DNA of 64,000 nt from Rhizophagus irregularis (taxonomy: Eukaryota). The notes below the pieces were generated by a model, which was given only the letters and a program-made list of their open reading frames with translations, was not told where the DNA came from and ran no database searches. Location of the stretch: assembly GCF_026210795.1 (NCBI RefSeq), contig NC_089433.1:3038001-3102000 (forward strand), written 5' to 3'. The position numbers were made by a program, and so were the translations under genes. This document shows positions 10,192 to 61,684 of the stretch, in pieces; position 1 is the first letter of the stretch; every line of letters starts with the position of its first letter.

Positions 10192-11281
10192 TGAGATCCC
10201 CCAATTCCCTCTGTCATCAATTTACAGAGTTGCCACATCGAACGGGCATTCCCATGGTCGAACGAACGAATGAACGAACGAACGAATAAACGAACGAACG
10301 AATAATCGACGGCATAATTAACAAATAATATAATCAACGCACAACAACAATATACAACAACATTCTTGGTTCACAACATAAATAGCGTTAGTAATATAAA
10401 ACATTAAACGATATAAAATAAAATTTACTTCTCTAAATTTTCCCCAAATTATATCCACTTTTACCTTTAATTTCAAACTTCGATAGCTCTCGCTACGAAT
10501 TATTACTTTTCAAAAGTGTACATTTAATTCATCTTAAAATTTCCATTTTTATTCAATTAAAATTAATTAAGCGAACATTAATTAAAGTTTAGGGCGAACC
10601 TATTACCTTTAATTAAAATTATACTTCATTAACAAATAATTAAATGAAACTTATATTTTTATTGAGTTCTGTGGATGAGAACTGTGGAATTACTTTGAAT
10701 TCCGCTCTCTATATATACAATTTTTATGCTACTTTCTATACTATCTTTTATGTTCTTTTTACATATTATCTTTGAACTATTTTTCTAATATACTATCTAT
10801 ATTTTAAATACGCTATCTTTTAATATGCTATCTTTTAATATGCTATCTTTTTATATATGTTCTTTTTAATATATTATCTTTTACGTTCCATCTTTATACT
10901 ATCTTTTTATATTATCTTTTACATTATTTTGTGTTCTTTAATCTTTCTGACATTATTCTATATGTTCTTTTAATTCGCTTTATGTGTTTTGCTTATAATC
11001 TATCTTTTGTGGCTTATAATTATTCTTTCTTATCGTTCTTATTGTTAAAGATTGCTAAGCCGCAATTGATCGACTCTATTTATCCTATTGGTTCCTTGTC
11101 AATCATTCAATAAATATTACATCATGTAGATCATTACTCTTCCTAAATGTTTATCCTTTTCGGCTAATTATTTATCCATCTACGCCAATCTATAATTAAT
11201 TTGTTCGTTCTTAATATTTAATAATTACATTTGGTGGTTGAATTTTATCATCTTTTCGTGCTTGATATTCGACCGTTTACA
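10192..11281 (-). repeat. 3' LTR
   Basis: Direct repeat of 20024-21113; I noticed only two substitutions. Preceded on the minus strand by the purine tract GAAGAGGGGGA (11285-11296). Confidence 0.97.
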
Positions 11282-20023: not shown

Positions 20024-21113
20024 TGAGATCCCCCAATTCCCTCTGTCATCAATTTACAGAGTTGCCACATCGAACGGGCATTCCCATGGTCGAACGAACG
20101 AATGAACGAACGAACGAATAAACGAACGAACGAATAATCGACGGCATAATTAACAAATAATATAATCAACGCACAACAACAATATACAACAACATTCTTG
20201 GTTCACAACATAAATAGCGTTAGTAATATAAAACATTAAACGATATAAAATAAAATTTACTTCTCTAAATTTTCCCCAAATTATATCCACTTTTACCTTT
20301 AATTTCAAACTTCGATAGCTCTCGCTACGAATTATTACTTTTCAAAAGTGTACATTTAATTCATCTTAAAATTTCCATTTTTATTCAATTAAAATTAATT
20401 AAGCGAACATTAATTAAAGTTTAGGGCGAACCTATTACCTTTAATTAAAATTATACTTCATTAACAAATAATTAAATGAAACTTATATTTTTATTGAGTT
20501 CTGTGGATGAGAACTGTGAAATTACTTTGAATTCCGCTCTCTATATATACAATTTTTATGCTACTTTCTATACTATCTTTTATGTTCTTTTTACATATTA
20601 TCTTTGAACTATTTTTCTAATATACTATCTATATTTTAAATACGCTATCTTTTAATATGCTATCTTTTAATATGCTATCTTTTTATATATGTTCTTTTTA
20701 ATATATTATCTTTTACGTTCCATCTTTATACTATCTTTTTATATTATCTTTTACATTATTTTGTGTTCTTTAATCTTTCTGACATTATTCTATATGTTCT
20801 TTTAACTCGCTTTATGTGTTTTGCTTATAATCTATCTTTTGTGGCTTATAATTATTCTTTCTTATCGTTCTTATTGTTAAAGATTGCTAAGCCGCAATTG
20901 ATCGACTCTATTTATCCTATTGGTTCCTTGTCAATCATTCAATAAATATTACATCATGTAGATCATTACTCTTCCTAAATGTTTATCCTTTTCGGCTAAT
21001 TATTTATCCATCTACGCCAATCTATAATTAATTTGTTCGTTCTTAATATTTAATAATTACATTTGGTGGTTGAATTTTATCATCTTTTCGTGCTTGATAT
21101 TCGACCGTTTACA
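20024..21113 (-). repeat. 5' LTR
   Basis: Direct repeat of 10192-11281. Confidence 0.97.
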
Positions 21114-39052: not shown

Positions 39053-39243
39053 AGTAGTATAGAAATGCCAGTTCTGGCTCACTTTTCTTGGAGTCCAATC
39101 CTGGTTACCTTTTTCTTGCTATCCCCTTGTTGCTCTCCCACCGGCTGTGGGTCCGATCCTGGTCACCTTTTTATATTTTTCACCTACTTGTATCACCTTT
39201 TTTATATTTTTACCTACTTATATCCTACTTATCTCATAATCTA
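39053..39243. repeat. Polinton left TIR, outer part
   Basis: Reverse complement of ~61438-61684; continues at 48575 after the nested insertion. Confidence 0.92.
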
Positions 39244-40394
39244 CATCAGGAAATTATATAGTGCGAAAAGTTGCGCAAGTTTACACATCATAATATTTCG
39301 TAAGCTTCCAGACCCGCCGCAAGTTTGCGTAAGCGTAATATTTCGTAACTTTTTAAAATATTTCAAAATATTACGATATGCAAAGCTTCGTAATTTTACG
39401 ATTTGTAATATTCCGTAATTTTGCGGTTCGCAATATTTCGTAATTTTACATAATATTTCGTAAGTTTTCAGACCCGCCGCAAGTTTGCGTAAGCGTAATA
39501 TTTTGTAACTTTTTAAAATATTTCGAAATATTACTGTATGCAAGGCTTCGTAATTTTACGATTCGTAATATTCCGTAATTTTACTGCGTAATACTTCGCA
39601 ACTTTTTAAAATATTTCGAAATTCTATGATGCGTAATGTTCCATAATTTGACGATTCGTAATATTCTGTGATTTTACACAACTTAATATTTCGTAATATT
39701 TCAAAATATTTCGATAAATAATACTTCATTTTCTGTACTATAAGTTTATATAATGTATGTTTTATTAGATATAATCATAAAAAATTACAAGTATTTATTA
39801 ATATATACAGAATACATAAAAGTAAAAAAGAGAAAGAGTAGAGTAACAATATTATTAGACGTAAAAAGAAGAGAAACAGCTATAGTAACGTTAGTATTAG
39901 ATATAAAGATAAAAGAAATATTGTTATTATTGTTAGTATTAAGGTAAAAAGAGTTAAAGAAACAGTAAAAGGAGTAAAAGAAACATGGATATTATCGTTA
40001 GTATTAAAGTACAAGTAAAAAGGAATAAAGGAAACGTAGATAGTATTGTTAGTATTACGACATAAAGTAACAAAGAGGTAAAAAAAAATGAAAATAATTA
40101 GTATTAATAAACAAATATTTCTATACCTGCAAAGCAATAAATTATGAAATATATGTAAATATATTGTATATAATTAAAGAAATAATAGAAAGAAGAGACA
40201 AAAAAATTAAAAATATTGAACAAAAGAATAAAGAAATAAGAAACAAAAATAAATAAGACAAAAACGCGTGCATGATTAAATGATTAAATGATTAAATCAC
40301 ATGCAAGGATCAGCCTAATTTGATTGGCCAGAAAATACGATATCGTAAAATTACGGAAATCCGCATTTTAAAAAATCACAGAAATTGTATATGC

Positions 40395-40600
40395 ACAATT
40401 ACTAAATATTATCCCCTCGTGATAAATTAAAAATTATCAACACAAATTCAACACAAATTTAACAAATTTAACGAAATTTGGCCAAAATTAACAAATTTTT
40501 ACCAGAATTATCAACACAAATTGAACACAAATTGAACACAAATTTCAGCCACGATTTATTTATGTCACACCCGTGTTGTTAAGAATTAATAACCATTTTA
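40395..40600. repeat. Internal inverted repeat, left arm
   Basis: Reverse complement of ~46285-46490 (CAACACAAATT-rich). Confidence 0.9.
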
Positions 40601-40668
40601 TTTATTAAAACTATATTAATTATGGTAAAAAAAATGCTATTACGTGTGATATATATAAAAAATAATAT

Positions 40669-42089
40669 TTATTTTTTATGCAACCCATAATTCTCTAATA
40701 AACTATTTACATACCGACCTTCCTCCTCCGTGTTATAAGAGTCAATAGAAAGTATATCATCGTCAGCTATGCCATCATTGGCCGCACCATCGTTGGCCGT
40801 ACCATTGTTGGCCGCATCATCGTTAGCCGCACCATCGTTAGGCCTACCATCGTTAGTCACATCATCATCAGCCGCACCTGCTCTATCGTCAGCTGCTCTA
40901 TCACCACCATCGTCTACATCATTACCATCATGAGAATCATCGTCCGAATGTGTAAATTTATCCCTATTTTCCAACTTTTGCTAAAAATCAATAAATAAAT
41001 AAATAAACTGTAATTCAAATAATTCACATTTTGCAAATTGTAAATTAAAAACTTACTAAGTTGTTGATTATCTTCGACTTCATTATACTTTCGCTCATTT
41101 GAATGTTTTGATTATTAGGATTTAAGTACGTTTCACATATGCTAATCGCATACGCTATTTGTGTTTTTGAGAGATTTTTATTTTCTTTTCGCAACTTATC
41201 AATTATCAGCGACATATATGTCGTAGGTTGCCCATCTTTAACCTTTTTAAATAGGTTGTTGTAACATCTTTTCACCTCCGCCTTACTCTTCCATTCCTGA
41301 ATCTTTGACGGACTAGCCTGAGTGTTAATAGACGGTAATTTATGCCCAGTCGCTTCGAAAACAGAATACATAACGTCTTTAACTCTAGACGTAAACGTCC
41401 CTCGTATGCTTCTATGTTGTTGTACTAACTATTAAAAAAAAATGTTAGTATGAAATTTAATAAAATTCATAATTGCTTTAACTTACAGTCGGGGCAATTT
41501 TTTTTTTCGAAAAAAATAATCCATTGATTTTTTTTGAACTGGCGCATAAATTCCGGATTTTCGTCTTTTAAATATTTTTCGGTAGCGAGTTTGTACTCGT
41601 CTTGCGAAGGATAAACAAAATTTTCAAATAAAATTTTCGATACCTTCTTAACGAGCTCCTAATCAAACGAGGTTAGCATTTCAGGTTTACATTAAATAAT
41701 ATTCATCTTTATTACCTTTACATACTCCGGATCTATTGTATTATTATTATTTTTGTTATTATCGTTGAGCTTTTTTTCTATGCTCGAGAGACGGGTTTCG
41801 AGATTTTTTTGTCCGGTGATAAGAACTTCAAGCTTAGAAATTATCTGCGAATTGGTTCTTAATAGTTTTTCTATTGTTTTTTTATTAACTTTAACAATAA
41901 AATATAATTTAACTATATATTATATAATTTCTTTTATAAAGAATATGATACATATTATGTCATATATACCATCAACACTATCATCGGATATTCTCACTCG
42001 CTTCTCAGCTTCGCTACCCTCAGTACTACGTTTTGAAAATCTTTCATTATCATCAATTCTTCATTTCTCGCCACGCTTTGTAGCCATTA
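40669..42089 (-). pseudogene. Multi-exon accessory gene of the Plavaka element, acidic C-terminus, early premature stop
   Basis: MATKRGEK*RIDDNERFSKR... at 42089, further exons at ~41715-41890, 41045-41430 and 40669-40980 bounded by GT-AG; divergent from the transposase. Confidence 0.55.
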
Positions 42090-43208
42090 TGATAATAAAT
42101 TTGAAACGAAAATATGAGAAAAAGGAGGAAATATATGAGAAAAAAGAGGAAATATATGAGAAAAAAGAGGAAATATATGAGAAAAAGGTGAACTAGAAAA
42201 TTCGAAAAGGATGAGGAAAAAGGGGGAAATACATGAATCAGAAATTCAGAAAAAGGAGGCAAGCTGTCATAAGGTAATTTCCGCCATTCTATACTAAAAA
42301 AGAAAAAAAACTTGCGAAATATTGCGAAAAATGGATGAACTAATGTGAAATATTACAAAAAATGAATGTACTAATGCAAAAATTTTGCATCGTGATATTA
42401 CGAAAAAATATTGTAACACTTTCATAAGAGAACTTTAAAAAAAAACTCTCGTAAAAGCACATAGTACAATCGAAATATTAATCAAATCCAATTTATAAAA
42501 AAATAACATGTTACACATGTTGGGGCTTTTATGCATGGAAAAAAAAGTTGCAGCCAGTGAACTCATTTGGCTGATCAGATTGATAGTGATCTTGAGCGCT
42601 TATAACCTGATTATCGCATAAATTTGTGGCTGATCATCCGTCCATTATTGTAAAAGTGATTTGCCGTGTTAAGCCAATAAATTTGCGGCTGATTATCAGA
42701 TGATTAGCCGATTGAATAAGCCATCCGAATTCTTACAGCCCGTTACAGCAAATTCAAAATATGCGAAACACTCAGCACTTTTGCTGTCAGATTCACTTGG
42801 CAGGTTGCCGGCAAATTGAAATAGTAAATAAAATAATAAACAATATTTATATGGTACATCATAGACTTGTTACATTTATTTTTAAATTTGCCAACCCACG
42901 AACTTGGCAAGTTCCCGACAGCAAAATTGCTGAGTGTTTCGCATATTTTAAATTTTGCTATAATGCGTAAAATTGCGAATGATTCCGCGATATTAGCCAC
43001 CAGATTCTTACAGCCAGTTCCATTCATTAATGCGTAAATTTGCGTAGTCGTGTCTATTCAAATAACTCAATCAATTGTAATCCATTCAATTAATTCATTA
43101 AATTTTTACAATGAATTTGCAATATAATTTTATTAGCACACATAATCTCATATAAATTAAATAGTGAATTGATACTTTTCATCAAATTTGACGCGTTAAT
43201 TTAGTAAC

Positions 43209-46188
43209 ATGAGTTTCAAATGCCCCCTTTGTATGCGAATATTCAGTCAACGCTTTGCATATACTCAACACGCCCAAAAATGCTTAAAAAATGTAGAAGT
43301 AGAAGTAGAAGATGATGATGATAATAATGATAGTGAAAAATATAGCAGTGAAATGGATACAAGAAGTAATCTAAGTAGTGAATATGAAAATGATAAAGTT
43401 GAGGTAATTATGTTATTCCAGATTATTCTTTTTAAAGAAAAAGCTCAAATTATACTAACTCATTTTGGTTTATAATTTTAGGTGAATGATGATAATAATG
43501 TACAAAATATGTCATTTGACAGTATTGGAAGTGCAATATCAGAGATGAGCCTTGAAGATAGTAACTTTGAAAATATATTAGATTCATCTGAAGAGCCTGA
43601 AATTTTTGAAGAACCCAAAAATCTCAATACCAAAACTTGCACAGAATTTCCTAATGATGCTTATAAAGATCTAATGTTATTAGTAACGAAATATAAAATA
43701 AACAATAAAGGTGGTAATGAAATAATACGTTTTTTTAATAAACATTCAAATCTTACAGAATCACCATTACCAAAAAATATCGAACAGGGACGAGCATTTA
43801 TGAATAATATGAAGTTTTCTAATTTAGAATTTAGTAAAGTTCTTATAACAAAACATAAAGATAAAGATTATTTTCTTTATTATCAAAACTTAATACAGTG
43901 CATCAAAAATATCTTAACTGTTCCTGACATAACACAAAATTTTGCGCTATCTTACGAAAACTATGAGGTAAATAGTAAATATTAGTTAATTCAATAATTT
44001 AAATAATATTTATTTTAATTTATTTATATTATTTTATAGTATAATAGAGAAAGAATTTACAGTGAACAAAACACTGGAAAATGGTGGAAAACTACGCAAG
44101 AATCCTTACCTACTGGTTCCAAATTATTATCAATTATTTTATATTCAGATGCAACAACTACAGATACATTAGGAAAAAGTCAATTGCATCCAATATATAT
44201 TACATTAGGTAATATCCCAATATGGCGTCGTAATAAACAGGATGCAAAGCAACTTTTGGGATATTTACCAATTTTAGAAGCTGCAAATAAAGATCTGGTT
44301 CGTGATACCTTTCATAAATCTTTACATCATTTACTAGAACCTATTATTTTATTAAAAGATGGTATAGACCTTTTTATAAATAATGAAAATACCTGGTTTT
44401 ATCCTAGAGTTTCAACTATTATTGCAGATTGGCCAGAGGCCGCAAGTTTTTGTTTAGTTTATAAATCCTCCAATTCAAACCTTCCATGTCACTCCTGTTT
44501 AGTTAAAAGGGAAAATCTTGCAAATATAGACTTATCGGTTAACGATGTAATACTAAGAACTCATGATGAAATGCGTAAACATTTTGAAAATGATACACAA
44601 AGATCTGTTTGCATAGAATCTGTACATAATTTTTTTTGGGATTTACCGTAAGTATGCAAAAGTAGAAATAATTATAATAACATATATAATTAATTATAAA
44701 TATTTATATTATCAAGGAATATAAATATCTACTTGGCTACTGTTTCTGACAGAATGCATCATTTAGATTTAGGTTTATTTCATTATCAAATTATCTTCAC
44801 GTGCGATATCTTAAAATTGCAACATGTTAATGGTAATAAATTAGTTGAAGAAGTAGATCGCCGTCTAGCAGCAATCCCACGTTTTCCCGCCATTAAAATT
44901 TTTTCCAATGGACTGCAGTCAATTGCAAGATTAACTGCTAATGAATATCGAAGTTTGATGAAAGTCATGATATTTGTTATTGATAATTTATATGATGAAA
45001 ATAACAATGAAGTAGATAATTTTGTAAATAATGATGATCTTACGAAATTGTACGAATATTGGAATGAAATGTATATTTTAAGTAGATATGAAGAATTTAG
45101 TGAAAGTGACTTGGAGAAATTTAATGTATGTATTAAAATTTTAGTAAAATTGAAAATTTAAATTAAATAAATTAAATTAACATTTAAGTTTTAGAATGCA
45201 ATACATAGATGGGCCCGGATGTTTGTCAAGGCTTTTAAATTTGTTTCTCCTTCCAATTTGAAGTTACCTAAATTGCATTCATGGGTTTATCATATTATTG
45301 ACTCAATACGATCTTATGGCGCAATAAATGGCTATACTACAGAAACTTACGAAAGTCTTCACAAATATTTCGTTAAAATACCCTACCGAATTAGCAATAA
45401 AAAAGATGTCAAACCTCAGATTTTACGAACTGTAAGTATTTGAAAATTTTATTTATTGTATATATTTATTATATAACTTAAGATGGAAATTAAATTAATA
45501 GATAAAACGTCAAGCAATATCTATTAGAATGTCTCAACATTCAGTGAATCCGGCAAAAACACCTCGCACTTGTAAATTTTCTGCAAGACTCTTTGAATTC
45601 TCTTTACAAGATGCAAATACATTTTTTAATGAAAAAAAAGATTCCGTAGACAATAAAATGCAGACTGGTTTTGCTAGATTTATAAGTTGTCTGGATTCAT
45701 ATCTAGATTTACTTGATGGTTTCACAATTATTGGTGAAACCCGAATAAATATATACGGATCGGTAACACTGGAAAATGGTGCCATAATGCGTGCCACAAA
45801 CAGGTATCATAATAAAGTATGGTTTAGCGACATAGCTATTTCAATGGATTCTGAAGAATCAAATGATTATATATCAGACAAAGGACTTTGTTATGGACAG
45901 GTATTTTTCCAATTTATGTAATAATTTATTATAAAAGTATTAATAAATATTTATTATTTATAGGCCTTATTGTTAGCAGAAGTATTAACAGACCCACCGC
46001 TAAATCTCGCATTAATTCAATGGTACGATTTTAAATCTAAAAGGAACCCATATTTATATGGATGTCCTCACTTAAAATTGATAGAATTATATAACTTTGT
46101 AGCTATAGAGTCTATACATGGTGTCGTTCACATAGTACCCCGATTTGATAAACAAAATGAATATTTCGTAAATAAATATATTTTTTAG
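43209..46188 (+). CDS. Plavaka (CMC/CACTA-related) transposase with N-terminal zinc finger, about 7 exons
   Basis: CPLC...HAQKC; YSDATTTDTLGKSQLHPIYITLGNIP; ADWPEA; PCHSC; DRMHHLDLGLF; LPKLHSW...TTETYESLHK; GT-AG introns between the listed ORFs. Confidence 0.88.
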
Positions 46189-46284
46189 TCACTTGATATA
46201 GGAGTTTTGATTTATTTTAATAAAATTATATCCTTAAAAGAATTTATGGTCACGTTTTCCATATCATAAATAAAATGCAGATTT

Positions 46285-46490
46285 ATTTATTTAATTATTA
46301 ACAACATGGGCGTGACATAAATAAATCGTGACTGAAATTTGTGTTCAATTTGTGTTGATAATTCTGGTAAAAAATTTGTTAATTTTGGCCAAATTTCGTT
46401 AAATTTGTTAAATTTGTGTTGAGTTTGTGTTGAATTTGTGTTGCGTAATTTTTATTTATCACAAGGGGATGATATTTAGTAATTGCATGT
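46285..46490. repeat. Internal inverted repeat, right arm
   Basis: Reverse complement of ~40395-40600. Confidence 0.9.
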
Positions 46491-46996
46491 ACGACGTACA
46501 AGATTTTTTTTATGATTTTTTTAAGAAATGTACGCAAAATATTTAATCAGAATATAATTGTTTTATTTTTAAATATGATATATTGATGATTTTTTTTTAA
46601 AATTCAATAGAATGTGCTAATAATAAATTGTTTTATTTTTAAATATAATATATTGATATTTATATTTAAATAACCAAAACATGTACATGATTTTTAATTA
46701 TTTTTAATTGAAATCAAACTAAGATTTTTTTTTAAAAAAAAATTAAAATAAATTAAGTGATTTATATCTATATTTAGAATCATGATATTTATATTTAGAT
46801 AATCCATATCCGCATGAGATTTAATTAATATGTTTAATGATGAAAAGTCTAATAAATTAAATTTTAATTGAAACGAGAAATAAAATCAAACCAAAGAGGT
46901 ATTGTTCAAATTTTATTTAAAGTGACATTTTACGACTTTCTTTCAAATTTTTACTCATCCCAAAATCAAATTATAAAAATAAAATCAAATCTAATA

Positions 46997-47637
46997 ATGC
47001 CTCGCCAAACACGTCGTCGTTCTTATAACGTCCATTGGAACTGGGCTATGATGGACGAACTTGTCGACATATGCCGCGACAGAAACCACGCCTACCATAA
47101 TATTAATGGTAGAAGCCGCCATGATTTTTGGGACTCTGTTGCCAATAGGTTCATATGACTAATATCTATAATTTTCTTTAAGAAAGAATTTAAATTCAAA
47201 TTAACCAATCCATTTAATTGAATCAGAATAAATAGAATATTTCGAACGAGGGTTTCTGGGCAACAGTGCAGCCAAAAGTGGAGGAACCTCGTCAGGGATT
47301 ACCATGTAAGTAAATAAATAAAATTACATTCATTTAAATTAAATGTATTTACCGAATATTCAAACTGATTTTGATATTTAGAACTATGTCCTTTATCGTA
47401 ATGGTATCCCTGATCGGCCTGGGCGGCGGCTGTGGACGCGTACCGGCCAAAGATATTATCGCGAATTTAGAACGAGATTTTGGGAGAGGCCGGGTAATTA
47501 TACTATAATAAAATTTTATAATTAATATTACATTCTATTTTACGTTCACATTTTAAATTTGATAAATTTGATCAATTTTAGATATGCGTGACGATCGTAG
47601 GAGAAGGAGAAACTTACCTACGTATCGTAGAAGATAA
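46997..47637 (+). CDS. Small Myb/SANT-like (trihelix) DNA-binding protein, 4 exons
   Basis: Exons 46997-47148, 47227-47305, 47382-47493 and 47582-47637 give ...HWNWAMMDELV...FWDSVANRINRIFRTRVSGQQCSQKWRNLVRDY...; the W-W-W spacing is that of trihelix domains. Confidence 0.8.
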
Positions 47638-47718
47638 TTATTTTTATTTTTTTATTTATTAAGTGAGTAGCTAGGCCCAGTCCGTACCAAATATCGGCTG
47701 GAGACTCACGTTTTTTTT

Positions 47719-47792
47719 GGGCTGTGACTGATACTGACGTCCACGCCGTACAGCCTGAATACTATTTTATAAAATAGTAGCGAACAAGTATC
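47719..47792 (+). ncRNA. HDV-like self-cleaving ribozyme (predicted)
   Basis: P1 GGGCTGT/ACAGCCT (G1-U wobble), P2 GATACT/AGTATC, P3 ACG/CGT, L3 TCCACGC, P4 TACTATTTT/AAAATAGTA, J4/2 GCGAA. Confidence 0.75.
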
Positions 47793-48034
47793 AAATGTAT
47801 ATTTTTTTATTAAGTTATAATAAAAATTAGAATTTACTTTAATTTTTAACATAAAAATTGTAAATAATAAAAAATTCGTAAATAAAAATAAATTTGCTTT
47901 CCCAAACTTAAAAAAAAAGGTGTTTATATAAAAGAAAAGGTGTTTATATTATTTTTGATTATTCAATAGTATCACATGCCCCTTGTATATGTTCTACTGC
48001 ATACGCAGTTTACAATCTCGTAAATTTTCAAAAC

Positions 48035-48400
48035 GGAATATTACGCAGGTTTACAGTCTCGTAAATTTTCGAAATATTTCAACCGTAATATTACGCAGGT
48101 TTACAGTTTCGTAAATTTTCGAAATATTTTAACCGTAATATTACGCAGGTTTACAGTCTCGTAAATTTTCGAAATATTTCAACCGTAATATTACACAGGT
48201 TTACAGTCTCGTAAATTTTTGAAATATTTCAACCGTAATATTACGCAGGTTTACAGTTTCGTAAATTTTTGAAATATTTCAACCGTAATATTACGCAGGT
48301 TTACAGTTTCGTAAATTTTCGAAATATTTCAACCGTAATATTACGCAGGTTTACAGTTTCGTAAATTTGCAGAATATTTTGACCATAATATTGCGTAAAT
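48035..48400. repeat. Subterminal 50-bp tandem repeat (about 7 copies)
   Basis: AATATTACGCAGGTTTACAGTYTCGTAAATTTTCGAAATATTTCAACCGT repeated head to tail. Confidence 0.93.
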
Positions 48401-48574
48401 CTTACGATATTGTAAACTTACGTAATATTTTAACCGTAATATCACATAAATCTTACGAAATTGTAAACTTACGTAATATTTTGAAATTTTTTGAAATATT
48501 ATGCCATAAACTTTCATAAACTTACAAAATCGTAAACTTACGCAATTTTTCGCGCTATAAAATTTCCTGATGTA

Positions 48575-48792
48575 ATTCACTTATATCCTACTTATTTCAT
48601 AATCTAAATCGTTTATTAATATTTTCACCTACTTACCCCCCAACCGAACAAGAAATAGGATTTCAAAGCCAACAGAGCCAAAAAAGGTAAGGAAATATTA
48701 ACCCATCCAGGAAACCAGCCATGGAGTCAATAGAGTGGAATAGCAAGGCAAGCAATTACCCTTATACCGAGAAAAAATGTAATTGAATAAAA
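48575..48792. repeat. Polinton left TIR, inner part
   Basis: Reverse complement of ~61220-61437. Confidence 0.92.
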
Positions 48793-48832
48793 GGTAGGTA
48801 CCAAATAACTATACAGATAAACAGTACATAAC

Positions 48833-49481: not shown

Positions 49482-52400
49482 ATGTCAACACATCAAGCAA
49501 GAAGTGCCCAACACAGACAAGTCATCCGATCAGTTTTAGCTGAACTCAAGCAGGTATTTGTCAAGTCCATCTCATATCCCCGCTCAAATGCAAAATTGCA
49601 GGAATATGAGGATGAGATCCGCCAAATCCGTGAAGCACAAGCGGTAGTAACCAATGAAGAGATAACCCGCATGATGCAAATTGACCCAAACCCACATTAT
49701 GAGGTAGTCTTTGAACGTCGTGATCAGGTACATATAGGAAAGGAGTTAACAGACTCAAACTTTACGGCTGATATTGCTATAAGAACACCTGGAGAGCATG
49801 ACTATGCTTCATTTCTTACAGCACACAGTTAAACAATCCAGAATATTCTTCGGGATGAAAGAAATCGATTGGGATCAATAAAAGTAAGAATTGGAATATT
49901 TGCCACAATAAGACGTTTAGATTCTTACCTTGAGGGATTATTCAGAGATGGTAACTTTAGTGAAGATGATGGAGTAGAGTATATCTACAGATATAACATA
50001 CCATTTAAAACTCGCAATATGCCAATCCTACCATCAACAGATATTAATGGTGCATTTAACTTTGCATTAGCAAGAATCATGCAGAAAGTAGAAGACTATG
50101 TAAATTACAGATCAGGTTGGGAATTCTATCGTGTAGAAAAAATATTTATAGAAATCTCACAATTCCAACCACCCACAGGAGCAGGACACATACCACTCCC
50201 AAAAGATCTTGCCACGAAAAAGGGAGTAGTAAATCCAGCTAATGATGATGACAAATGCTTCCAGTGGGCAATCCTAGCAGCATTACATCCAGTAGAAAAG
50301 AATGCAGAAAGAATTTCCAAGTATAAGGAGTATGTAAATGAGTTAAACTTTGAAGGTATCGAATTTCCAGTACAAGCTGATGAGGTAATTCTAAGAAGAT
50401 TTGAGCGACAGAACCCAACTATTGCCCTCTGCATTTGTGAATGGCGTGACCACCGCCTATGTCCAATATATGTTACCGATAGGGATGATGCAGAGGGCCG
50501 TAAAATAATAGATTTAGTACTTATCAGTAACGGGGAAAAGCAGCACTATTGCTGGATTAAGAATATGAGCCATTTAGTAAATAAACGTACAAAAAATGGA
50601 CATGCAATATTTGTCTGCCGATGGTGTATCTCCCACTTCACACATCAACAAGAAATTCATGACAAACATGTAGCAATATGTCGAGGATTAAAGAAAACCC
50701 CACAAGCAGACCGCATGCCATCAGTAAAGAAAGGAAATGATATATATGAATTCAAGAACTGGAAACGCCGCATGCAAGTCCCATATTACTTTGTTGCAGA
50801 CTTTGAAGCCCTAGTAATGGACATACCACCCACAGATGAAGACAAAGATAAAAAAACCAAGAAAGTGCAAGAGCAAATCCCCTGCTCATACTCGTATATT
50901 AAGGTAAGATATGATGGTGTAAGTGAATCACAGAAGATATTTACAGGAGAAAATGTAGCACAAAAATTTGTAATCGAAATGCTAAATGAGGCTGAAGCAA
51001 TCCGTAATGAATTCAGAAACCCAATGGAAATGATGCCGTTAACAACCCAAGAGCAAGTAAGTTATGATAATGCAATAAACTGCTGGATATGTCGTAACCC
51101 CTTAGATGGAAATAAAGTAAGAGACCACTGCCATATTACAGGAAGGTATCGAGGTGCAGCACATAAAGGATGCAATCTTGACTTATCCATAAAACCTCGT
51201 GAAATGCATATCCCAGTAATCTTTCACAATTTATCAGGATATGATGGACACATAATTATGCAAGGAATTGGTGCAATGGAATGTGAGGATGATATTGATC
51301 CTATCCTTTATAACATGGAAAAGTATATGGCATTCAAGTTAGGTTCCCTCCGATTTATAGACAGCTTACAATTCATGAAATCAAGTCTCGACAAATTAGC
51401 ATCCAACCTAGGCGCAGAAAAATGTAGAGCACAAAAATGTAGTAATCCACAACACTTATGGCGAATTGATGCAGGTAGATGCTTTGCACATCCCGAAAAC
51501 TTTAAGATAACACGAAGTTAAATACCACCTGAATTACTCGAGATTTATCTTAAGAAAGGTGTCTACCCGTATGAATACATGGATGACTGGAAAAAGTTCG
51601 AGAAAACTAGTTTACCACCTAAAGAAGCATTCTATAGCAAACTTAATGAAACCCACATTAGTGATAAAGAATATGAATATGCACTGTATGTATGGGAAAA
51701 AGCAGGATGTAAAACAATGCAAGATTATCATGACATTTATCTCAAAACTGACGTCCTCCTACTAGCCGATATATTTCAGAATTTCCGAGAAATGGCCTTG
51801 AAAAAATATGGGTTAGATCCTCTCTGGTATTACTCAATACCAGGCTTTGCATGGGATGCACTATTCTTCATGACAGGGCAAAGATTGGATCTTATAACTG
51901 ACCAGGATATGTACATGATGGTAGAACAAGGATTACGTGGTGGAATCTCTATGGTAAGTAAACGATATGCTCGTGCAAATAACCCAGATATGGGAGAAGG
52001 TAAATGGACCGCAGAAAAGCCCAAGTCATCTATCCTATACTTAGATGCAAATAACTTATATGAATGGGCCATGTTGCAATACTTACCTACAGGTAACTTC
52101 CACTGGGTAAAGGAGGAAAACGAGTTATCTAACATTCAAAGGCAAATAGAAAGTAATGAAATACCAGATGATTCTTCTGAGGGATATATCCTTAAAGTCA
52201 AACTGGAGTACCCTCAAGCCCTCCATTCACAACACACAGATTACCCTCTTGCACCAGAACGAATGAAGGTTAAGAAGGAATGGCTTAGTAAAAAGCAGCA
52301 GAAAATAATAGCACGCTCAGGACAACGATATACACCCACAGATAAGCTCATCCCTAACCTATTTGATAAGGATGAATATGTAGTTCATTATAGAAATCTC

Positions 52401-53377
52401 CAGTATTATGTTAGCCAGGGCTTAGTAATCAAGAAGGTCTATGAAGCTATAAAATTCGAGCAGGCTCCATGGATGAAACCATATATAGAATTTAACACCG
52501 CCGAACGTGCTAAGGCTAAGAATGATTTTGAGAAGGACTTCTATAAACTCATGAATAATAGTGTATTTAGTAAAACTATGGAAAATCTCAGGAAACGTGT
52601 ACGTGTCTCAGTAGTACAACCCAAAACCCATCCCAAGAAATATAAAAAGCTTACCTCAGATCCTGCATTCAAGGGTCATAAAATATTCTCAGAAAATCTT
52701 GTTGCAATCCACTGACGAAAAGTGGAGGTAATGCTTAACCGTCCAATATATGTGGGTATAAGTGTGCTTGACCTCTCGAAGCTCTGTATATATCAATTCT
52801 ACTATGATACTCTTAAAGTACGATATGGTGAAAAAATCCAGTTATGTTATACAAACACAGACTCACTTCTTGTACAAATCCAAACTGAGGATATTAATGC
52901 AGACCTTATAGATATGGCAGACCAATTTGACTTCAGTGATTATCCTAAAGATCATCCTGTACGAAAAGCATTAGGTGATAAGACTGACATAAATATGAAA
53001 ATCCCAGGGAAATTTAAGGATGAATGTAATGGAGCAGTTATAGCAGAATTTATTGGCCTCCGTCCCAAAATGTACTCCATTCTCAAGGTAGGGGATGAGA
53101 CCACCAATCCAAAACATGGTATCCGTAAAGCTAAAGGTGTCCCCTCAAAGGTAGTTAAAAAAGAGTTCCACTATGAGCGGTATAATAAAGCACTCTTTGA
53201 TCCTAAACATAATGATACAGTCACCTTTAGAGCAATCCGATCTGATAGACATGCCATAAATGTTATAGAAATGTCGAAGGTGGGGTTATCCCCTATGGAT
53301 GATAAAAATGGATTGCACAAGATAATATCACAATGTATGCACATGGAGACTATAGGATACCACAACTTGAAAATTAA
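49482..53377 (+). pseudogene. Protein-primed family B DNA polymerase (pPolB), inactivated
   Basis: VADFEA, FHNLSGYDGH, FIDSLQFM, KGVYPYEY, YLDANNLY, KLMNNSVF, YTNTDS, KAKGV; EndoVII-like insert CWIC...DHCH...GCN. Stops at ~49830, 51519 and 52713; frameshift at ~53308. Confidence 0.95.
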
Positions 53378-54444
53378 TATAATATATGAGTAGGAGGCAG
53401 CATAGTATCAGATGGCACAACTAATAATTCTTCTCGAGTAAATATTTTTTTAGGTCCATCAGATAACCTATATATAACCGGCTGCCCATCAACAACTGTG
53501 GAAGATTCAATTGTATAAACTTTAATAGACCATATTGGATCAGTTGCACGTCTCCTACCTTGGTAATCTGAGTTATCAAGTAAGTATCTCACAAGAGAAC
53601 CAGCTGGTAAACGTATTTCTTCTGCACCTACAGGTCTATCCTTCCGAATTTTTGAAGGTAGTGCATACACTTGATCTTTCTGGATTGCCTCAACTGGAGA
53701 CATACCTAGCAGACGAGTATTAGAATTATTTAGCTCATTCACAATATCAGAAAGGTTCTTAACCCAGGCAGTATTCACACCTTCTGTAAGGAGTTCCTTT
53801 GCATCCTGTATTTTAAAAAGTCTTTCTGCTAAAGTTCGATTATACCGTTCAACAATAGCCTGACTCTTATGAGTAGTATCCACCCGAATACGCACACCTT
53901 TTTCATCCATTAATCGGATAACTTCATCCTTAAATTCTGATTCTCCATCTACTTGTAAAACTCTTGGCCAAATAAGCGGGCAGTCTGCTTTACTATAAAT
54001 CTTTTTAAATGCCTTAGCAACACGTGCAGAGCTGCGATCTTCTAGAGATACTGAAGCTTTATATCGGCTAGCAACATCTACAATATTCAGACAGTATTTA
54101 TACAGCTTTCTATCTACAGTATCATAGGGCATATATAAGATATCTGCTTGATGATACATATTTGGTCGAGTAATTTTATTAAAAGAAACCTGTGAAACAT
54201 ACTTGGGTATAGATGAGTGTATTTGCCATATAGCCTGTTTATGCAACCACTCTGTAATATCAGATATGTTAAAATCATGACCCTCAGCTTGCACTTTAGC
54301 CCAAAGTTTTTCAGGAGTACGATAATATCCACATGGATGGTAATAGATTTGTTGAAGGATATAATTTTGTTTGATTTGTTTATTAAATGTAGGGTCTATA
54401 AAAATCTGTGGAACTGGCAATGGAAGATACATCGTTAAAGACAC
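53374..54444 (-). CDS. Polinton retroviral-like (rve) integrase
   Basis: IYYHPCGY, HQADILYM, IVDVASRY, QVDGESEF, VERYNRTL and WSIKVYTI; convergent with pPolB with overlapping stop codons. Confidence 0.92.
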   Translation of the reverse strand: MSLTMYLPLPVPQIFIDPTFNKQIKQNYILQQIYYHPCGYYRTPEKLWAKVQAEGHDFNISDITEWLHKQAIWQIHSSIPKYVSQVSFNKITRPNMYHQADILYMPYDTVDRKLYKYCLNIVDVASRYKASVSLEDRSSARVAKAFKKIYSKADCPLIWPRVLQVDGESEFKDEVIRLMDEKGVRIRVDTTHKSQAIVERYNRTLAERLFKIQDAKELLTEGVNTAWVKNLSDIVNELNNSNTRLLGMSPVEAIQKDQVYALPSKIRKDRPVGAEEIRLPAGSLVRYLLDNSDYQGRRRATDPIWSIKVYTIESSTVVDGQPVIYRLSDGPKKIFTREELLVVPSDTMLPPTHILY

Positions 54445-57400
54445 AGATTACAAAGCTTGCACATACATTGCAATCACAAGAGCAATATATAAAATACCTG
54501 TATGGTGTAATCGAGGGTCATGAATCTGAGATAGAAGAACTTAGGCAAAAAAATGCTAAGTTGCGTGCAAAGCTTAAGAAAGCATTAGAAACGGCATCAC
54601 TAAAGGAGGAAGGGCTTCAAGCATTAGAACGTCAGCTGATTGAAGTTGATACTCTAAATATTCAACTTAAAGATCGAATAAAAGAACTTGCTAATAGACA
54701 ACGGAAAAACATGGCAGCAATTTCTCCTGACCCTATTACAGAAATCTTAAATAATCGGACAACTATAGCAAATAGTGTAGCTGGTATTCGTATTCACCTT
54801 GATCGTACAACTATTGCAGCACACCCTCATATAAATCATTTATTTAACACTGCAAATGATAGTTTTGATGCCATTATCCAATATGCTAATGAGTTGCGAA
54901 ATATTATAGAAGATCAAGATAATATGGAGGATAGACTTGAAGGTTTGTTAGATGATGCACATAACCGTGAAGAATATCTTAGACAAGAACTTAATAATAC
55001 ACGTGCTACTATACTGAGAACAAGACGTACTTATGAGGATGCATATGCAAATGAAGTGCGTCATCGCCAATATTGGGAAGCCCTTACACAAAATACTCAG
55101 ATCCAATTGGCTAACATCCAGGCTCAATTTGCTAACAGTCAAATCCAACTAGCTAATGTCCAGAGAGAACGTGATGAGAGTAGAAGAAATGCTCATAGAT
55201 TATTACAGCGCTATAATACTGAAACAGAGTGAAGTAGAAGGCGGGCTAATGGTATCATTCAGCAAGCTCGAGCATAGAGAGGGCAATTTTTAAACTGTCG
55301 CAATCATGGTCAAAATTTGCAAAATCAGGTCAATAATTTGAATCAACAGATTCTAGCATTACAAAATAACCCTCCGATAATACAACAACCGATAATGGCA
55401 AGATATGCACCTAAAAAATTTAGAGGAGCATCTGGTGAAGATCCAGAACTTTGGCTTCAAGAATTCAGGCAATGGTGTGAGTCTGCTGGACTTGATCCTG
55501 CTGCTAATGCTAGAACTCGTATTAGGATTCATGGGGTCTTTGAAACTTTACTTGAAGATGATGCTAGAGATTGGTATGAAACACATATCAAAGGAAAAAA
55601 TTGGGAATGTGTAAATCTTCTGGATAATACTGGTGTGGCCAATCTTGCTGCTTTTAATGCTTTGAATAATGGTGCTATACAGGCTGTAGCGGCGAATCAA
55701 TTTCGTGGAGGGGCTGGTGTATTACATGGACAAGCAGCTGCAGTTAATACTATTACTGGTGCTAATTTTATACCTAATCATACTGTATGGGATGAAGATT
55801 GGTCAATAGCTGAGGGTCGTCCTACTGATATAGCTGTTAATAATCCTAATGCTAATAATGGAGGTACAATTGTGGCTCCTGGAATACGTATTGGACAATT
55901 AATATATCGTTTTAAGCATTACTTTCCTACTATAACATCTGAAAAGTCTAAGCTTGCATTTAATGCTATCGTTCAGGGTAGTGATACTGTAAGCCGATTC
56001 TATTCTAAATTACGAAGAATGGTTAGACTTGCATATCCAACTCTTCCAGAGGTAAATCAGAATGAATTAGTACGGCAACAGTTCTTAAATGGTCTTTCCA
56101 GTGAAAATAAGTTGGATGCGCGACGTATTAGTTTAGAAAATTCAGTTGCATCTATTCTGAATAAATTGGAAGAAGTTGAGAAATACAGGACAGATATGCC
56201 ACCTACTCCTATAGTTACATATCAGGGTCCAACTTTAGCAGATATTGAGAATCTTATAAATTCTAAAATTCCTATGACTACGGCTAGATCATCTGCAGTA
56301 CCAGTACCATCTTCTAGTCCATTTTCAAGTCCTCAAAATGATACATCATTTCAGAGATTACTTGCTTTAGCATATAAATTAGGTCTTCCAAGAGATATCG
56401 ATATAAGTAAAGTAACCCTTAGTGATCTTGAAATATTTATTGATACAGAACTTAATAAAAATTTACCATCTGACCATATTTACCGTGGTAATCAGGTATT
56501 TGGTATAAGTTCAGGTACACGCAAACCAAAGAAATCAAAGAAATGCTCAAGTTGTGGAAAATCTGGTCATACTAAGAGTTCCTGTCCAAAATCTAAGAAG
56601 GGGAAGAGGAAAACAAATTATGCACAAGACTCCTCTAATTCCTCTAACTCTTCTGATGCCTCTGACTCCTCTGACTCCTCTGATAGTGATTCAAACTCTG
56701 GACATGCCTGCTATAGATTAAAAAAAAAGCCTACAGAAAGGAAACGTGTAGATAAAAAGCCTACTGATAAGAAAAAATCACAACTTGAAAGGCAGCGTAT
56801 TATCTTTGAGGTTTTTATACAACTCTTAAAGCTTCTGGTTCAATCCTTCGTTAATGCTGTACTAAAAGAGACTGTTATATCTGCTTACAATGCTCTGAAT
56901 GCTGAATTCATTAATTATAAAGAACCAGTACTCAGTCAGCTTAAAGGAGAACTCTCGATAAAAACACGTGAAAAAGTTTGGGATAATGTTAAGGACCTTT
57001 TCACATCTATCCTTCATCCTATGATTTCGGTTGTAACTAATAGTATGGCTGCAAATTTAATCCGTAAAAATGATGATGTTATATGTAATAATGACTTATG
57101 GTCTTCTATAGCAGGTATTGGAATTGTTAACCGCAAGTCTGCTAGTGATGTAGTCACTATTAAGACTAAAGTAGTCGCACCTGAGAGTGAAAAATCTTTA
57201 GTTATTCCTACGACAATTTTCGATACTGGTTCTGATAGTTCTCTAATATCTAACAATATCGTGAAGCGCCTAAATCTTGATGTTGATAGAAGTAATGCTC
57301 CTGACCTTAGTGGTGTTGCGACAAAATCTGATACTATTGGGACAGTATATGGTCTTGGTATCCTTGTATATGATGGAGAGAACTCTAAAAAAATTGAAGA

Positions 57401-58834
57401 TGACTTCATGGTTGTTAAGAGTGATAAGGACTTTTTATTACTGGGTGTACCTTGGATTGATCGTGCTTAAAGCTCGAACGGTTCAGGCTAAACCGGGGAA
57501 CCGATCCGAAACTGGCTCAAAATTCGGTTCGGTTCGGTTCGGGTATTAGAACCGAAAAACTGGCGGTTCAGTTCAGTTTAATCCGATTTTTTATAAAAAT
57601 GCGAAAAATCGAATAGCCGGCCATCTAGTGATCGTATAAAGTCGAGCCATATATTATTGGATTCCTCTCGATGAGACGCGTCGAATGGTGGTAAGATCAT
57701 GTCTCTAGCATCGATAGATCACACGTCAACCCACGCTAAATGATTTATAAATAATTGGAATTAGAAAGCTATCTATCTGTGCTAGAGACATGATCTTAGC
57801 ACCATTCGACGCGTCTCAGTGAGACAAATCCAATGAATATAAATTCGTTCGTGTACGACCACTGGATGGCGAATAATATCAAGTTTCGCATTTTTTTAAA
57901 ATTTTCGAGCGTTAAAAATTAAATTTCCGATACATGAATTTATTCGTTGTCCAATGGTCGTATAAATATGAATTAGTACTCATTAGATTCGTCTCGATGA
58001 GACGAGTCGAATGGTGGTAAGATCACGTCTCTAGCATCGATAGATAGCTTGCTAATGCCAATTTTTTATAAATTATTTAGCGTGAATTAACTTACGATCT
58101 ATTAATGCTAGAGACATGATCTCACCACCATTCGACTCGTCCCATCGAGACGAATCCAATGAGTCCTAATTCATATTTGTAGGACCATTGGACGACGAAT
58201 AAATTCATGTATCGGAATTTTTAATTTTTAACGCTCGAAAATTTTAAAAAAATGAGAAACTTGATATTATTCGCCATCCAGTGGTCGTACATGAACGAAT
58301 TTATATTCATTGGATTCGTCTCACTGAGACGCGTCGAATGGTGCTAAGATCATGTCTCTAGCACCGATAGATAGCTTGCTAATTCCAATTATTGATAAAT
58401 CATTTAGCGTGCGTTAACGTGTGTTCTATTGATGCTAGAGACATGATCTTACCACCATTCGACGCGTCACGTCGAGACGAATCCAATGATATATGGTTCG
58501 ACTTTATACGATCACTAGATGGCCGGCTATTCGATTTTTCGCATTTTTATAAAAATCAGATTAAACCGAACCGAACCGCCGGTTTTTCAGTTTGGTTTTT
58601 ACGGATTTCGGCTCTAATCCGAACCGTCTATAATCCGGACCAAACCGACCCGTTCGGAGCTTTAATCATGCTAATGTCATTCTAGATTTCCAAAATCGGC
58701 AATTGACCATCCCTCTATCATCACATAAAAAAATTACCATTCCAATTTCTCTACATAAACAGAAAACTAACGTGACTTCTTTGCAGATGGATACTATCGA
58801 CTTAAAAAAAATTCACACTCTCGAGGAAGATTAA
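54420..58834 (+). pseudogene. Coiled coil + Gag-like capsid + CCHC knuckle + aspartic protease polyprotein (two premature stops, MITE insertion)
   Basis: One frame from 54420 through stops at ~55230 and ~55275. Motifs PKKFRGASGEDPELW, LEDDARDWY, QGSDTVSRFYSKL...FLNGL, CSSCGKSGHTKSSC, FDTGSDSSLIS and LLLGVPWI. The frame resumes after the MITE (DRANVILDFQNRQLTIP...EED*). Confidence 0.85.
57468..58664. mobile_element. hAT-type foldback MITE (family 3) interrupting the protease domain
   Basis: TIR TAAAGCTCGAACGG...CCGTTCGGAGCTTTA; 8-bp TSD ATCGTGCT/ATCATGCT; the body is a near-complete ~1.1-kb palindrome centred near 58085. Confidence 0.9.
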
Positions 58835-59081: not shown

Positions 59082-59594
59082 TTACATTTGCCATGTTACT
59101 CTGATTTCTAGGTCTTTACGGGTTTCTATGAGTTTTTCAATGGCATTTCTATTTTTAAAATATCGACTATATCTGATATCTATCATTCGAAGGTTTGGTA
59201 ATATATGCAGAATTTCACTTAGCAAATCTCTAACGTCACCTTTTCCACCATAGTATTGATAATCTATTATGCTAAGTTCCTGGATATTGGGGCAAGCTTG
59301 TAGCATTTTTACAATACAGATAGGCCATAATAATACTCCATCCATATTAAGCTTTCTGATATATTTTCCACATACTGTCCCTGGTTTTGTGAGATGTTTG
59401 TACATTTGGAACTCCTTAATATTATAGCGGTTATAAAGGTCTGTTTCACCCCATAGGAGAGAGTTTGCTACTACAGCCCATTTTCGACACACTAATGCAT
59501 AATTGCAAAGATAATGCCAACGGTAGTAAGTGCCTTCATATGTAGTTTTGAATATCTTTTCTAAAAGTTCGAAAGGTAAGCTATTGTTTGTCAT
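59082..59594 (-). CDS. F-box + leucine-rich-repeat-like protein
   Basis: SLPFELLEKIF...ALVCRKW F-box; CPNIQELSI and LPNLRMIDI LRR-like motifs. Confidence 0.8.
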   Translation of the reverse strand: MTNNSLPFELLEKIFKTTYEGTYYRWHYLCNYALVCRKWAVVANSLLWGETDLYNRYNIKEFQMYKHLTKPGTVCGKYIRKLNMDGVLLWPICIVKMLQACPNIQELSIIDYQYYGGKGDVRDLLSEILHILPNLRMIDIRYSRYFKNRNAIEKLIETRKDLEIRVTWQM

Positions 59595-59699
59595 GGTATC
59601 TCATATGAGATATTGATGAAGAAGTTTTATTTAATTAGATTTTTTTCTTAAGATAAAATAATTTGAACATTTCTTTTCTATCAATAGAAAAAACCAGAC

Positions 59700-61194: not shown

Positions 61195-61219
61195 CTTGTA
61201 AACCTTTTATATATAAATC

Positions 61220-61684
61220 TTTTATTCAATTACATTTTTTCTCGGTATAAGAGTAATTGCTTGCCTTGCTATTCCGCTCTATTGACTCCATGGCTGGTTT
61301 CCTGGATGGGTTAATATTTTCTTACCTTTTTTGGCTCCGTTGGCTTTGAAATCCTATTTCTTGTTCGGTTGGGGGGTAAGTAGGTGAAAATATTAATAAA
61401 CAATTTAGATTATGAAATAAGTAGGATATAAGTGAATTAGATTATGAGATAAGTAGAATATAAATAGGTAAAAATATAAAAAAGGTGATATAAGTAGGTG
61501 AAAAATATAAAAAGGTGACCAGGATTGGACCCACAGCCGGTGGGAGAGCAACGGGGATAGCAAAAAAAGGGTTGTCAGGATTGGACCCACAGCCGGTGGG
61601 AGAGCAACAAGGGGATAGCAAGAAAAAGGTAACCAGGATTGGACTCTGAGGAAAGTGAGCCAGAACTGGCATTTCTATACTACT
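61220..61684. repeat. Polinton right TIR (~460 bp, with an internal ~60-bp duplication)
   Basis: Reverse complement of 39053-39243 + 48575-48792; CAGGATTGGACCCACAGCCGGTGGGAGAGCAAC occurs twice. Confidence 0.93.

Follow-up and report, generated by a model that had tools for sequence, protein, structure and literature searches.

In a 64,000-nt stretch of the Rhizophagus irregularis genome (contig NC_089433.1, positions 3,038,001 to 3,102,000 of the forward strand; hereafter the window, numbered from its first letter), a 75-nt segment behind a Myb/SANT-like gene of a DNA transposon can be folded in the manner of the hepatitis delta virus (HDV) ribozymes. Judged from its pairings, its motifs and its form in related copies, we think it rather probable that the segment is a classical-type HDV-like self-cleaving ribozyme, located in the 3' untranslated region (UTR) of the transposon gene. 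The features concerned are listed in Table 1.

Table 1. Candidate ribozyme, surrounding 3' module and carrier transposon, in window coordinates
Feature	Position	Strand	Remarks
HDV-like ribozyme candidate	47719-47793	+	75 nt, G1 = G47719; paired base by base in a pair table
G47719	47719	+	3' cleavage product predicted to begin here
P1	47719-47725 / 47750-47756	+	GGGCUGU / ACAGCCU; 7/7 pairs, the G1-U38 wobble (G47719-U47756) and 6 Watson-Crick
J1/2	between the 5' strands of P1 and P2	+	GAC
P2	47729-47735 / 47787-47793	+	UGAUACU / AGUAUCA; 7/7 Watson-Crick, including U47729-A47793
P3	47737-47739 / 47747-47749	+	ACG / CGU; 3/3 pairs
L3	47740-47746	+	UCCACGC; P1.1 cytosines are C47741 and C47742
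J1/4	47757-47759	+	P1.1 partners; GAA in the window copy, GGG in nearly all other copies
P4	47760-47767 / 47772-47779	+	8/8 pairs, loop UAUA
J4/2	47780-47786	+	G47780, CGAA 47781-47784, C47785, A47786; predicted catalytic C is C47781
3' module	47653-47980	+	hairpin, U8 run, candidate, then an AT-rich tail containing AATAAA signals, then ~80 nt more
Upstream hairpin	47653-47709	+	GUGAGU 47653-47658 / ACUCAC 47704-47709; inner CCAG.CCG/CGGCUGG stem
T8 (U8) run	47711-47718	+	ends at the predicted scissile bond 47718/47719
RNA contig stop zone	47870-47902	+	contig ends at 47902, 47897, 47870 and 47878 in runs X15-X18; adjoins the AATAAA signals
Myb/SANT-like gene	46997-47637	+	gene model: ATG 46997, 4 exons, three GT..AG introns, 132 amino acids, stop 47635-47637
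Plavaka transposase open reading frame (ORF)	44040-44651		PF18759, E 7.3e-26
DNA transposon	39242-48574	+	9.3 kb; 43-nt terminal inverted repeats 39242-39284 / 48532-48574, 91% complementary

Pairings of the candidate, chance expectation and copies

The strands of the candidate follow each other in the order P1-P2-P3-P1'-P4-P2', which is that of a nested double pseudoknot, and this order was obtained both from the pair table and from two descriptor scans. All pairings and motifs named in an earlier reading of the sequence alone (P1, P2, P3, L3, P4 and J4/2) were present in the pair table, and P2 was even one pair longer than had been described. A published descriptor of the class treats the G1-Y pair, P1.1 CC/GG, L3 U..CG and J4/2 CRRA as invariant (PMC6326823). 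In the candidate the G-Y pair at the cleavage site is the wobble G47719-U47756, L3 has the published form UCCNCGN and the CGAA of J4/2 has the published form CRRA. Natural examples typically have a P1 of 6-7 bp, a P2 of about 7 bp and one or two P1.1 pairs (PMC4908430).

The G + C content of the 75 nt (43%) was higher than that of the containing kilobase 47001-48000 (32%), as expected from the GC-rich island that had been described at this place. The GTGAGT...ACTCAC hairpin and the T8 run reported ahead of the candidate were also found. The distance from the Myb stop codon to G47719 had been given as 82 nt and has to be corrected to 81 nt according to the gene model. Nested-only folding of the 75 nt gave an unremarkable energy (z -0.9 to -1.0), which is expected because P2 and P1.1 cannot be scored in such a fold.

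The chance expectation was determined with a strict descriptor (G1-Y, L3 UCCNCGN, J4/2 CRRA, P1 of 7 bp, P3 of 3 bp, P2 of at least 5 bp and P4 of at least 3 bp), using shuffled windows as controls. On both strands of the window there was a single match, at 47719. Without any demand on P1.1, one of the 2483 shuffled windows matched; when a G was demanded at the first J1/4 position, i.e. one P1.1 pair, the number of matching shuffles was 0 of 2483. A descriptor of the topology only also gave 47719 as the sole match in the window, yet 99 of 600 dinucleotide-preserving block shuffles matched too, which is not significant. Bare topology means little in this AT-rich DNA, and this descriptor was dropped as evidence.

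Among 55 loci (235,871 bases) that have the P3-L3-P3' core together with GCGAA, only two passed the full descriptor, and both were members of the same family as the window copy. The pattern scan of metagenomes yielded 43 loci, comprising 41 GC-rich chance matches that lack P1, P2 and P4, and the two family members, contigs L027 and L041. A pattern scan of viral contigs yielded 12 loci, in none of which a 7-bp P1 was present (0/12). The 3' strand of P2 was found as a 6-mer at 43 and as a 7-mer at 21 of the 128000 positions on the two strands of the window. P2 is evidence independent of Rfam, whose nested models cannot score this helix.

In the window copy P1.1 is reduced to a single possible pair out of two (C47742-G47757), and C47741 faces A47758. 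The earlier description of P1.1 as weakened by a GA was therefore right for this copy (1/2 pairs), while the family has GGG with a full P1.1. The run data available for RNA and DNA consisted of contigs (8 runs), which cannot show RNA ends. In the RNA-library contigs of all four runs (two studies) both 47758 and 47759 were changed from A to G. In the four DNA runs, G at 47758 accounted for 24.9 of 24.9, 109.3 of 109.3, 6273 of 6366 and 88583 of 89285 depth units (98.5-100%), and both metagenome contigs (2/2) had GGG at J1/4. The GGG form has both P1.1 pairs and the CUGGG string of the HDV consensus. Within the ribozyme the majority form departs from the window at 47758 and 47759 alone, and the change at 47758 restores the missing P1.1 pair. 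The GAA of the window is a rare derived state, and the two G-to-A changes are confined to this copy. From its sequence, the window copy has probably been crippled by these two changes; given its broken P1.1, weak cleavage or none is predicted.

When 85 nt of the GGG form were compared to Rfam (E up to 10), three matches were obtained and all were HDV-class. The best was RF00094 with 29.8 bits (E 0.0034; gathering threshold 50), a full-length match with G1 in register, followed by RF01787 with 15.9 bits (gathering 37) and RF01788 with 7.4 bits (gathering 38). With the GAA form of the window the same 85-nt search gave RF01787 alone (14.5 bits); the loss of RF00094 is as expected because of the two G-to-A changes. 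The claim of an HDV-like ribozyme made in the sequence-only reading was upheld for the fold and for the published invariants, with a P1.1 gap that is specific to the window copy. The check by descriptor and Rfam suggested there had a mixed outcome: the strict descriptor matched and HDV-class families were the only ones matched, but every Rfam score was below gathering.

Minor variants within 47719-47792 were seen in the DNA runs at 47721, 47728, 47741, 47744, 47746, 47747 and 47748, all of them C>T or G>A. Over 47450-48150 the minor variants of runs X14 and X9 were likewise overwhelmingly C>T and G>A (in X14, 13 C>T and 11 G>A among 35 changed places). This excess resembles a deamination-type mutational bias on repeats.

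The 3' module, its transcripts and alternative explanations

The Myb-like gene lies inside a 9.3-kb element that has 43-nt inverted repeats and a Plavaka ORF, in line with the earlier description of the gene as transposon-borne. Besides the terminal inverted repeats, the transposon carries subterminal tandem repeats. The nearest Atlas clusters of its transposase consist of Plavaka proteins, mostly from Mucoromycota, and by its sequence the carrier is a Plavaka-type (KDZ/CACTA-related) DNA transposon. Plavaka elements have been reported to be prevalent in an arbuscular mycorrhizal fungus and to be expressed there (PMC11075540). The metagenomes that contain the stretch include soil and rhizosphere samples. 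For the Myb gene, the GT..AG joint of intron 1 (47149-47226) was seen in one RNA contig, and exon 2 had a weak match to Myb_DNA-bind_4 with an E value of 0.005, below the cut-off. The order of the transposon parts recurs in L041 and L027, and L027 encodes a diverged but open homologue of the Myb-like protein.

L041 is colinear with 45344-48132 at 91-95% identity. Over the 3' module, 319 of 328 aligned columns were identical between the window and L027 (97%), compared to identities of 33-71% for the Myb exons and 60-78% for the introns. The part upstream of the candidate (47653-47718) had no mismatches to L041, and two mismatches and one gap to L027. The module of about 330 nt thus appears as one sharply bounded unit, which may reflect either strong constraint or recent exchange between subfamilies; its conservation argues that the region matters. 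For the hairpin at its start the L041 sequence was folded, which does not differ from the window there; the minimum free energy was -15.0 kcal/mol (z -1.74), and 11 of 200 shuffles were as stable, so this result is modest. The length of the U8 run varies slightly among copies, and the HDV consensus of Rfam also has u at positions -1 and -2. A separate repeat at 47690-47977, proposed from depth differences in runs X6 and X14, was rejected; these differences were too noisy and the trend in X9 was opposite.

Contigs from RNA libraries (4 runs of 2 studies) covered the Myb gene and the candidate on the sense strand, and the same contigs held both. The zone in which these contigs stop (Table 1) is likely the poly(A) site region, although this is a weak hint; a DNA contig in run X1 continues past it, to 48035. 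Record 4 of X15 starts to match exactly at 47719 after 3 unmatched letters, a weak hint at most. Two non-canonical RNA joints were seen (47174>47353 and 47285>47351), and record 7 of X16 has 55 unplaced letters between 47505 and 47670; both the joints and the 55 letters probably reflect other copies. Stretches without cover in the RNA runs (e.g. 47547-47587) carry no information. Carry-over of DNA into the RNA libraries is possible.

The main rival to an HDV-like ribozyme is a chance look-alike within a conserved module. According to this explanation, which we consider possible if somewhat unlikely, the module would be conserved for another reason, as a subterminal region read by the transposase, as a polyadenylation or 3'-UTR cassette, or through recent spread by recombination, and the HDV-like pairings would be non-catalytic. 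A number of observations speak for it and weigh against a ribozyme. The AT-rich tail (47794-47980) is as invariant as the candidate itself, so that the conservation is not specific to the ribozyme but extends over the whole module. The module lies about 600 nt from the right end of the transposon and adjoins the subterminal repeats. No compensatory changes were found among the copies, and the variants at 47721 and 47748 would each break a pair; in the three-way alignment of the window, L027 and L041 only two ribozyme columns differ, and copies so nearly identical leave little to covary. RNA contigs cross 47718/47719 in all four runs (X15 record 3, X16 record 7, X17 record 12 and X18 record 13). 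Uncut RNA that reaches the downstream end therefore exists, and cutting, if any, is incomplete; two of the RNA libraries were poly(A)-selected, which would enrich uncut molecules.

The shape of the candidate also deviates from the minimal consensus: P2 is separated from P3 by one additional nucleotide and CGAA from P2' by two, and both P2 and P4 are AU-rich. The additional nucleotides fit only if G47736 pairs with C47785 and A47786 bulges; this possible eighth P2 pair would let P2 abut P3 and CGAA, like in the canonical fold. The Rfam evidence is limited in several respects. The whole window gave no matches at gathering thresholds, and the 501 bases of 47500-48000 gave four matches with E up to 10, none of them HDV-class. 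Scaled to 64 kb, the 29.8-bit match to RF00094 has an E value of about 2.6 and would not stand alone. The HDV models of Rfam are narrow and can score neither P2 nor P1.1. The Rfam result is a calibrated restatement rather than independent proof, because the model largely rewards the features that had been used in the sequence-only reading. In addition, the loose topology is common in shuffled sequence, and a few chance matches to the full descriptor are expected across a scan of very many windows. Finally, the context is unprecedented as far as searched, which lowers the prior: the titles and abstract openings of the papers listed contained neither an HDV-like ribozyme in the 3' UTR of a DNA transposon nor a nuclear self-cleaving ribozyme for Rhizophagus, although a published case may exist.

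Several findings do not fit a look-alike well. The full descriptor is matched where at most 1 of 2483 shuffled windows matches by chance, and the GGG form of the family restores the sole missing invariant. The Rfam matches of this form are confined to the HDV class. The remaining helices are absent from every one of the chance matches to the core motif (53/53). A region bound by the transposase might have an inverted copy at the left end of the transposon, and no such copy of the module is present there.

A further explanation accepts the fold as real and selected, without cleavage in vivo. The structure would then be an RNA platform for protein binding or 3'-UTR stability, in the way that R2 ribozymes bind the R2 protein. 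The uncut RNA in the contigs is in agreement with such a scaffold; moreover, the pseudoknot of the R2 ribozyme is bound by the R2 protein, and a role similar to that of an internal ribosome entry site (IRES) has been proposed for HDV-like ribozymes (PMC6765202). However, the invariants of the catalytic core (L3 U..CG, the C of J4/2 and the G-U at the scissile site) are all kept, and a scaffold would not need them. A function as IRES lacks an ORF downstream: the contigs stop after about 110-190 nt of AT-rich sequence. We regard a non-cleaving scaffold as quite improbable.

Still less probable, and in our opinion hardly to be expected, is that a short non-autonomous retroposon, running from 47719 to the A9 run (~47918), was inserted behind the Myb gene and has the ribozyme as its 5' processing element. 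HDV-like ribozymes do typically head elements without long terminal repeats (non-LTR elements) and their derivatives that resemble short interspersed elements (PMC6765202, PMC3774820), an A9 run is present at 47908-47916, and the match of X15 record 4 begins exactly at 47719. However, in L041 and L027 the conservation of the 66 nt upstream (hairpin and T8) equals that of the ribozyme, with homology continuing further upstream, and both family contigs have the Myb gene in front. No loose end at 47719 was present among the rows listed for the four DNA runs, beyond which there are 180 further rows. At the other side the conserved block passes the A-run and extends to at least 47980. No reverse transcriptase was found downstream within the transposon.

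Other repeats in the transposon and the window

Within the transposon, internal inverted repeats rich in TTTGTGTTGA-like units (40396-40589 and 46291-46485) bracket the transposase region. The Myb gene and the ribozyme module are located outside these internal repeats and inside the outer ones, and the junction is the same in L041 and L027. An array of 50-nt subterminal tandem repeats occupies 47972-48442. Compared to the adjoining Myb/ribozyme stretch, this array had a summed contig depth in the DNA runs that was higher by factors from several to about 20; because of this higher depth, the 50-nt unit is taken to be much more abundant than the transposon. The insertion is flanked by a 25-nt direct repeat with one mismatch (39217-39241 and 48580-48604), located 5 nt beyond the right inverted repeat. 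It represents a target duplication of unusual length or else a repeat internal to the host element.

The transposon was inserted in the left terminal inverted repeat of a ~22-kb repeat (39053-39248 and 48562-48793, compared to 61219-61684). The ~22-kb repeat contains polymerase-B-like ORFs with in-frame stops (49833-53393; DNA_pol_B_2 and Endonuclease_7 matched below threshold only), an rve integrase ORF on the minus strand (53374-54447), a weak gag/aspartyl-protease-like ORF (55278-57470) and an F-box-like ORF on the minus strand (59082-59600). It may be a Maverick/Polinton-like element. Inverted repeats of 336 nt with 96% complementarity are present at 57588-57923 and 58220-58555, with nested repeats of ~326 nt between them. 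Elsewhere in the window, 100-2450 is a satellite-like array with units of about 77-80 nt, each with the internal palindrome AACGTTGCGAAACGTT. Two direct repeats of 300 nt (10192-10491 and 20024-20323) are 100% identical and 9.8 kb apart, possibly a young pair of LTRs or the product of a segmental duplication. The intervening DNA is strongly skewed in composition, with a GC skew down to -0.5 and an AT skew of about -0.3.

Proposed function and relation to known systems

If the candidate is an HDV-like ribozyme, RNA of the GGG form would fold co-transcriptionally, and with C47781 as general acid it would be cut between U47718 and G47719. Upstream of the cut this would leave the capped body of the Myb messenger RNA (mRNA), ending in the conserved hairpin and U8 with a 2',3'-cyclic phosphate. 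The downstream product, of about 150-185 nt from G47719 to 47870-47902, would have a 5'-hydroxyl and carry the poly(A) signal. The upstream hairpin may shield the ribozyme fold from interference by flanking sequence. Each cut would remove the poly(A) tail from the Myb message, and the element would for that reason be a built-in attenuator of the transposon Myb protein; only the uncut fraction would yield normal polyadenylated Myb mRNA. In the sequence-only reading, a 3' end without polyadenylation or a destabilised transposon mRNA had been put forward as the consequence of self-cleavage.

A broader proposal, which goes well beyond the ribozyme itself and which we advance as an unlikely one, is that a cut-and-paste transposon carries a portable 330-nt 3'-end cassette of hairpin, U8, HDV-like ribozyme and poly(A) signal. 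The cassette would provide a poly(A)-independent 3' end (hairpin, U8 and cyclic phosphate) or throttle the Myb mRNA, and would have been kept or exchanged among elements whose coding regions have drifted. If true, a DNA-transposon gene would for the first time be seen to use an HDV-like ribozyme to form its 3' end or to control its dosage. Engineered constructs in which ribozymes define the 3' end would then have a natural counterpart.

Among known ribozymes, the candidate resembles most the HDV genomic and antigenomic ribozymes (RF00094), with the same strand order and helix lengths and the best Rfam match. At the level of motifs, L3 UCCACGC compares to UCCuCGc in the model, CUGGG of the family to CuGGG and GCGAA to GCuAA, and there is a U at -1 and -2. 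It differs from RF00094 by the 1-nt insertion (G47736) between P2 and P3, by the two extra nt before P2' and by a P4 that is short and AU-rich. Unlike HDV, the candidate is chromosomal and part of a eukaryotic DNA transposon, not of a circular RNA replicon.

With the ribozymes of R2, L1Tc and RTE-type retrotransposons it shares the ribozyme class, the location within a mobile element and the weak matches to RF01787 and RF01788. The core sequence of R2 ribozymes is flexible, in which they are like the candidate (PMC3774820). Retrotransposon ribozymes define the 5' end of the element RNA, and the DNA upstream of them is variable (PMC6765202). In contrast, the candidate is located behind a gene, and the 66 nt upstream and the Myb gene are shared in all three copies compared. 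Its carrier is a cut-and-paste DNA transposon, which needs no RNA intermediate.

For fungi, 230 representatives of variant HDV ribozymes have been described in 26 species (Li and Breaker 2017, PMC5640933). The candidate has in common with these a fungal setting (judged from the nearest Mucoromycota Plavaka clusters), an extra nucleotide between P2 and P3 and, for the variants, variable gene associations (PMC5640933). The variants typically show C-G at the cleavage site and a loop E in place of part of P4 (PMC5640933), whereas the candidate has G-U and a plain 8-bp P4. Only 11 consensus-type HDV ribozymes were known from fungi according to the same source (PMC5640933), and by its pairings the candidate would belong with these.

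Two ribozymes in animal genes are comparable in position. The mammalian CPEB3 ribozyme is also contained in a protein-coding transcription unit, and its slow or partial cleavage would compete with mRNA maturation (PMC6765202). It differs in being intronic and in a host gene, whereas the candidate is in the 3' UTR of a transposon gene. The CPEB3 family of Rfam was not matched by either the GGG or the GAA form in the 85-nt searches (E up to 10). P1.1 is also weakened in the CPEB3 ribozyme, and its L3 is of the form UUCACGU. The discontinuous hammerhead in the 3' UTR of rodent Clec2 genes acts in the way proposed for the candidate, as a ribozyme that cleaves itself in an mRNA after the stop codon and ahead of the poly(A) site. 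The Clec2 hammerhead lowers expression. It is of another class, in a host gene, and unrelated in sequence and fold. It has been placed in mRNA biogenesis (PMC6765202).

The candidate is likely a known ribozyme class in a new or unusual setting. The roles of HDV-like ribozymes outside deltaviruses and the 5' ends of retrotransposons are largely unknown (PMC6765202). The GGG form and the GAA form with its broken P1.1 offer a built-in natural comparison. If the candidate does not cut, it would be a warning that matches to the full HDV descriptor can arise in conserved AT-rich repeats. If it cuts, a soil fungus of the mycorrhizal type would offer an example of the HDV class at work on a DNA transposon, at the 3' end of a message that codes for protein. 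Two questions could then be put to a concrete case: by what means a transposon adjusts the dose of an accessory DNA-binding protein, and for what reason a non-coding 3' module is far better conserved than the gene that precedes it.

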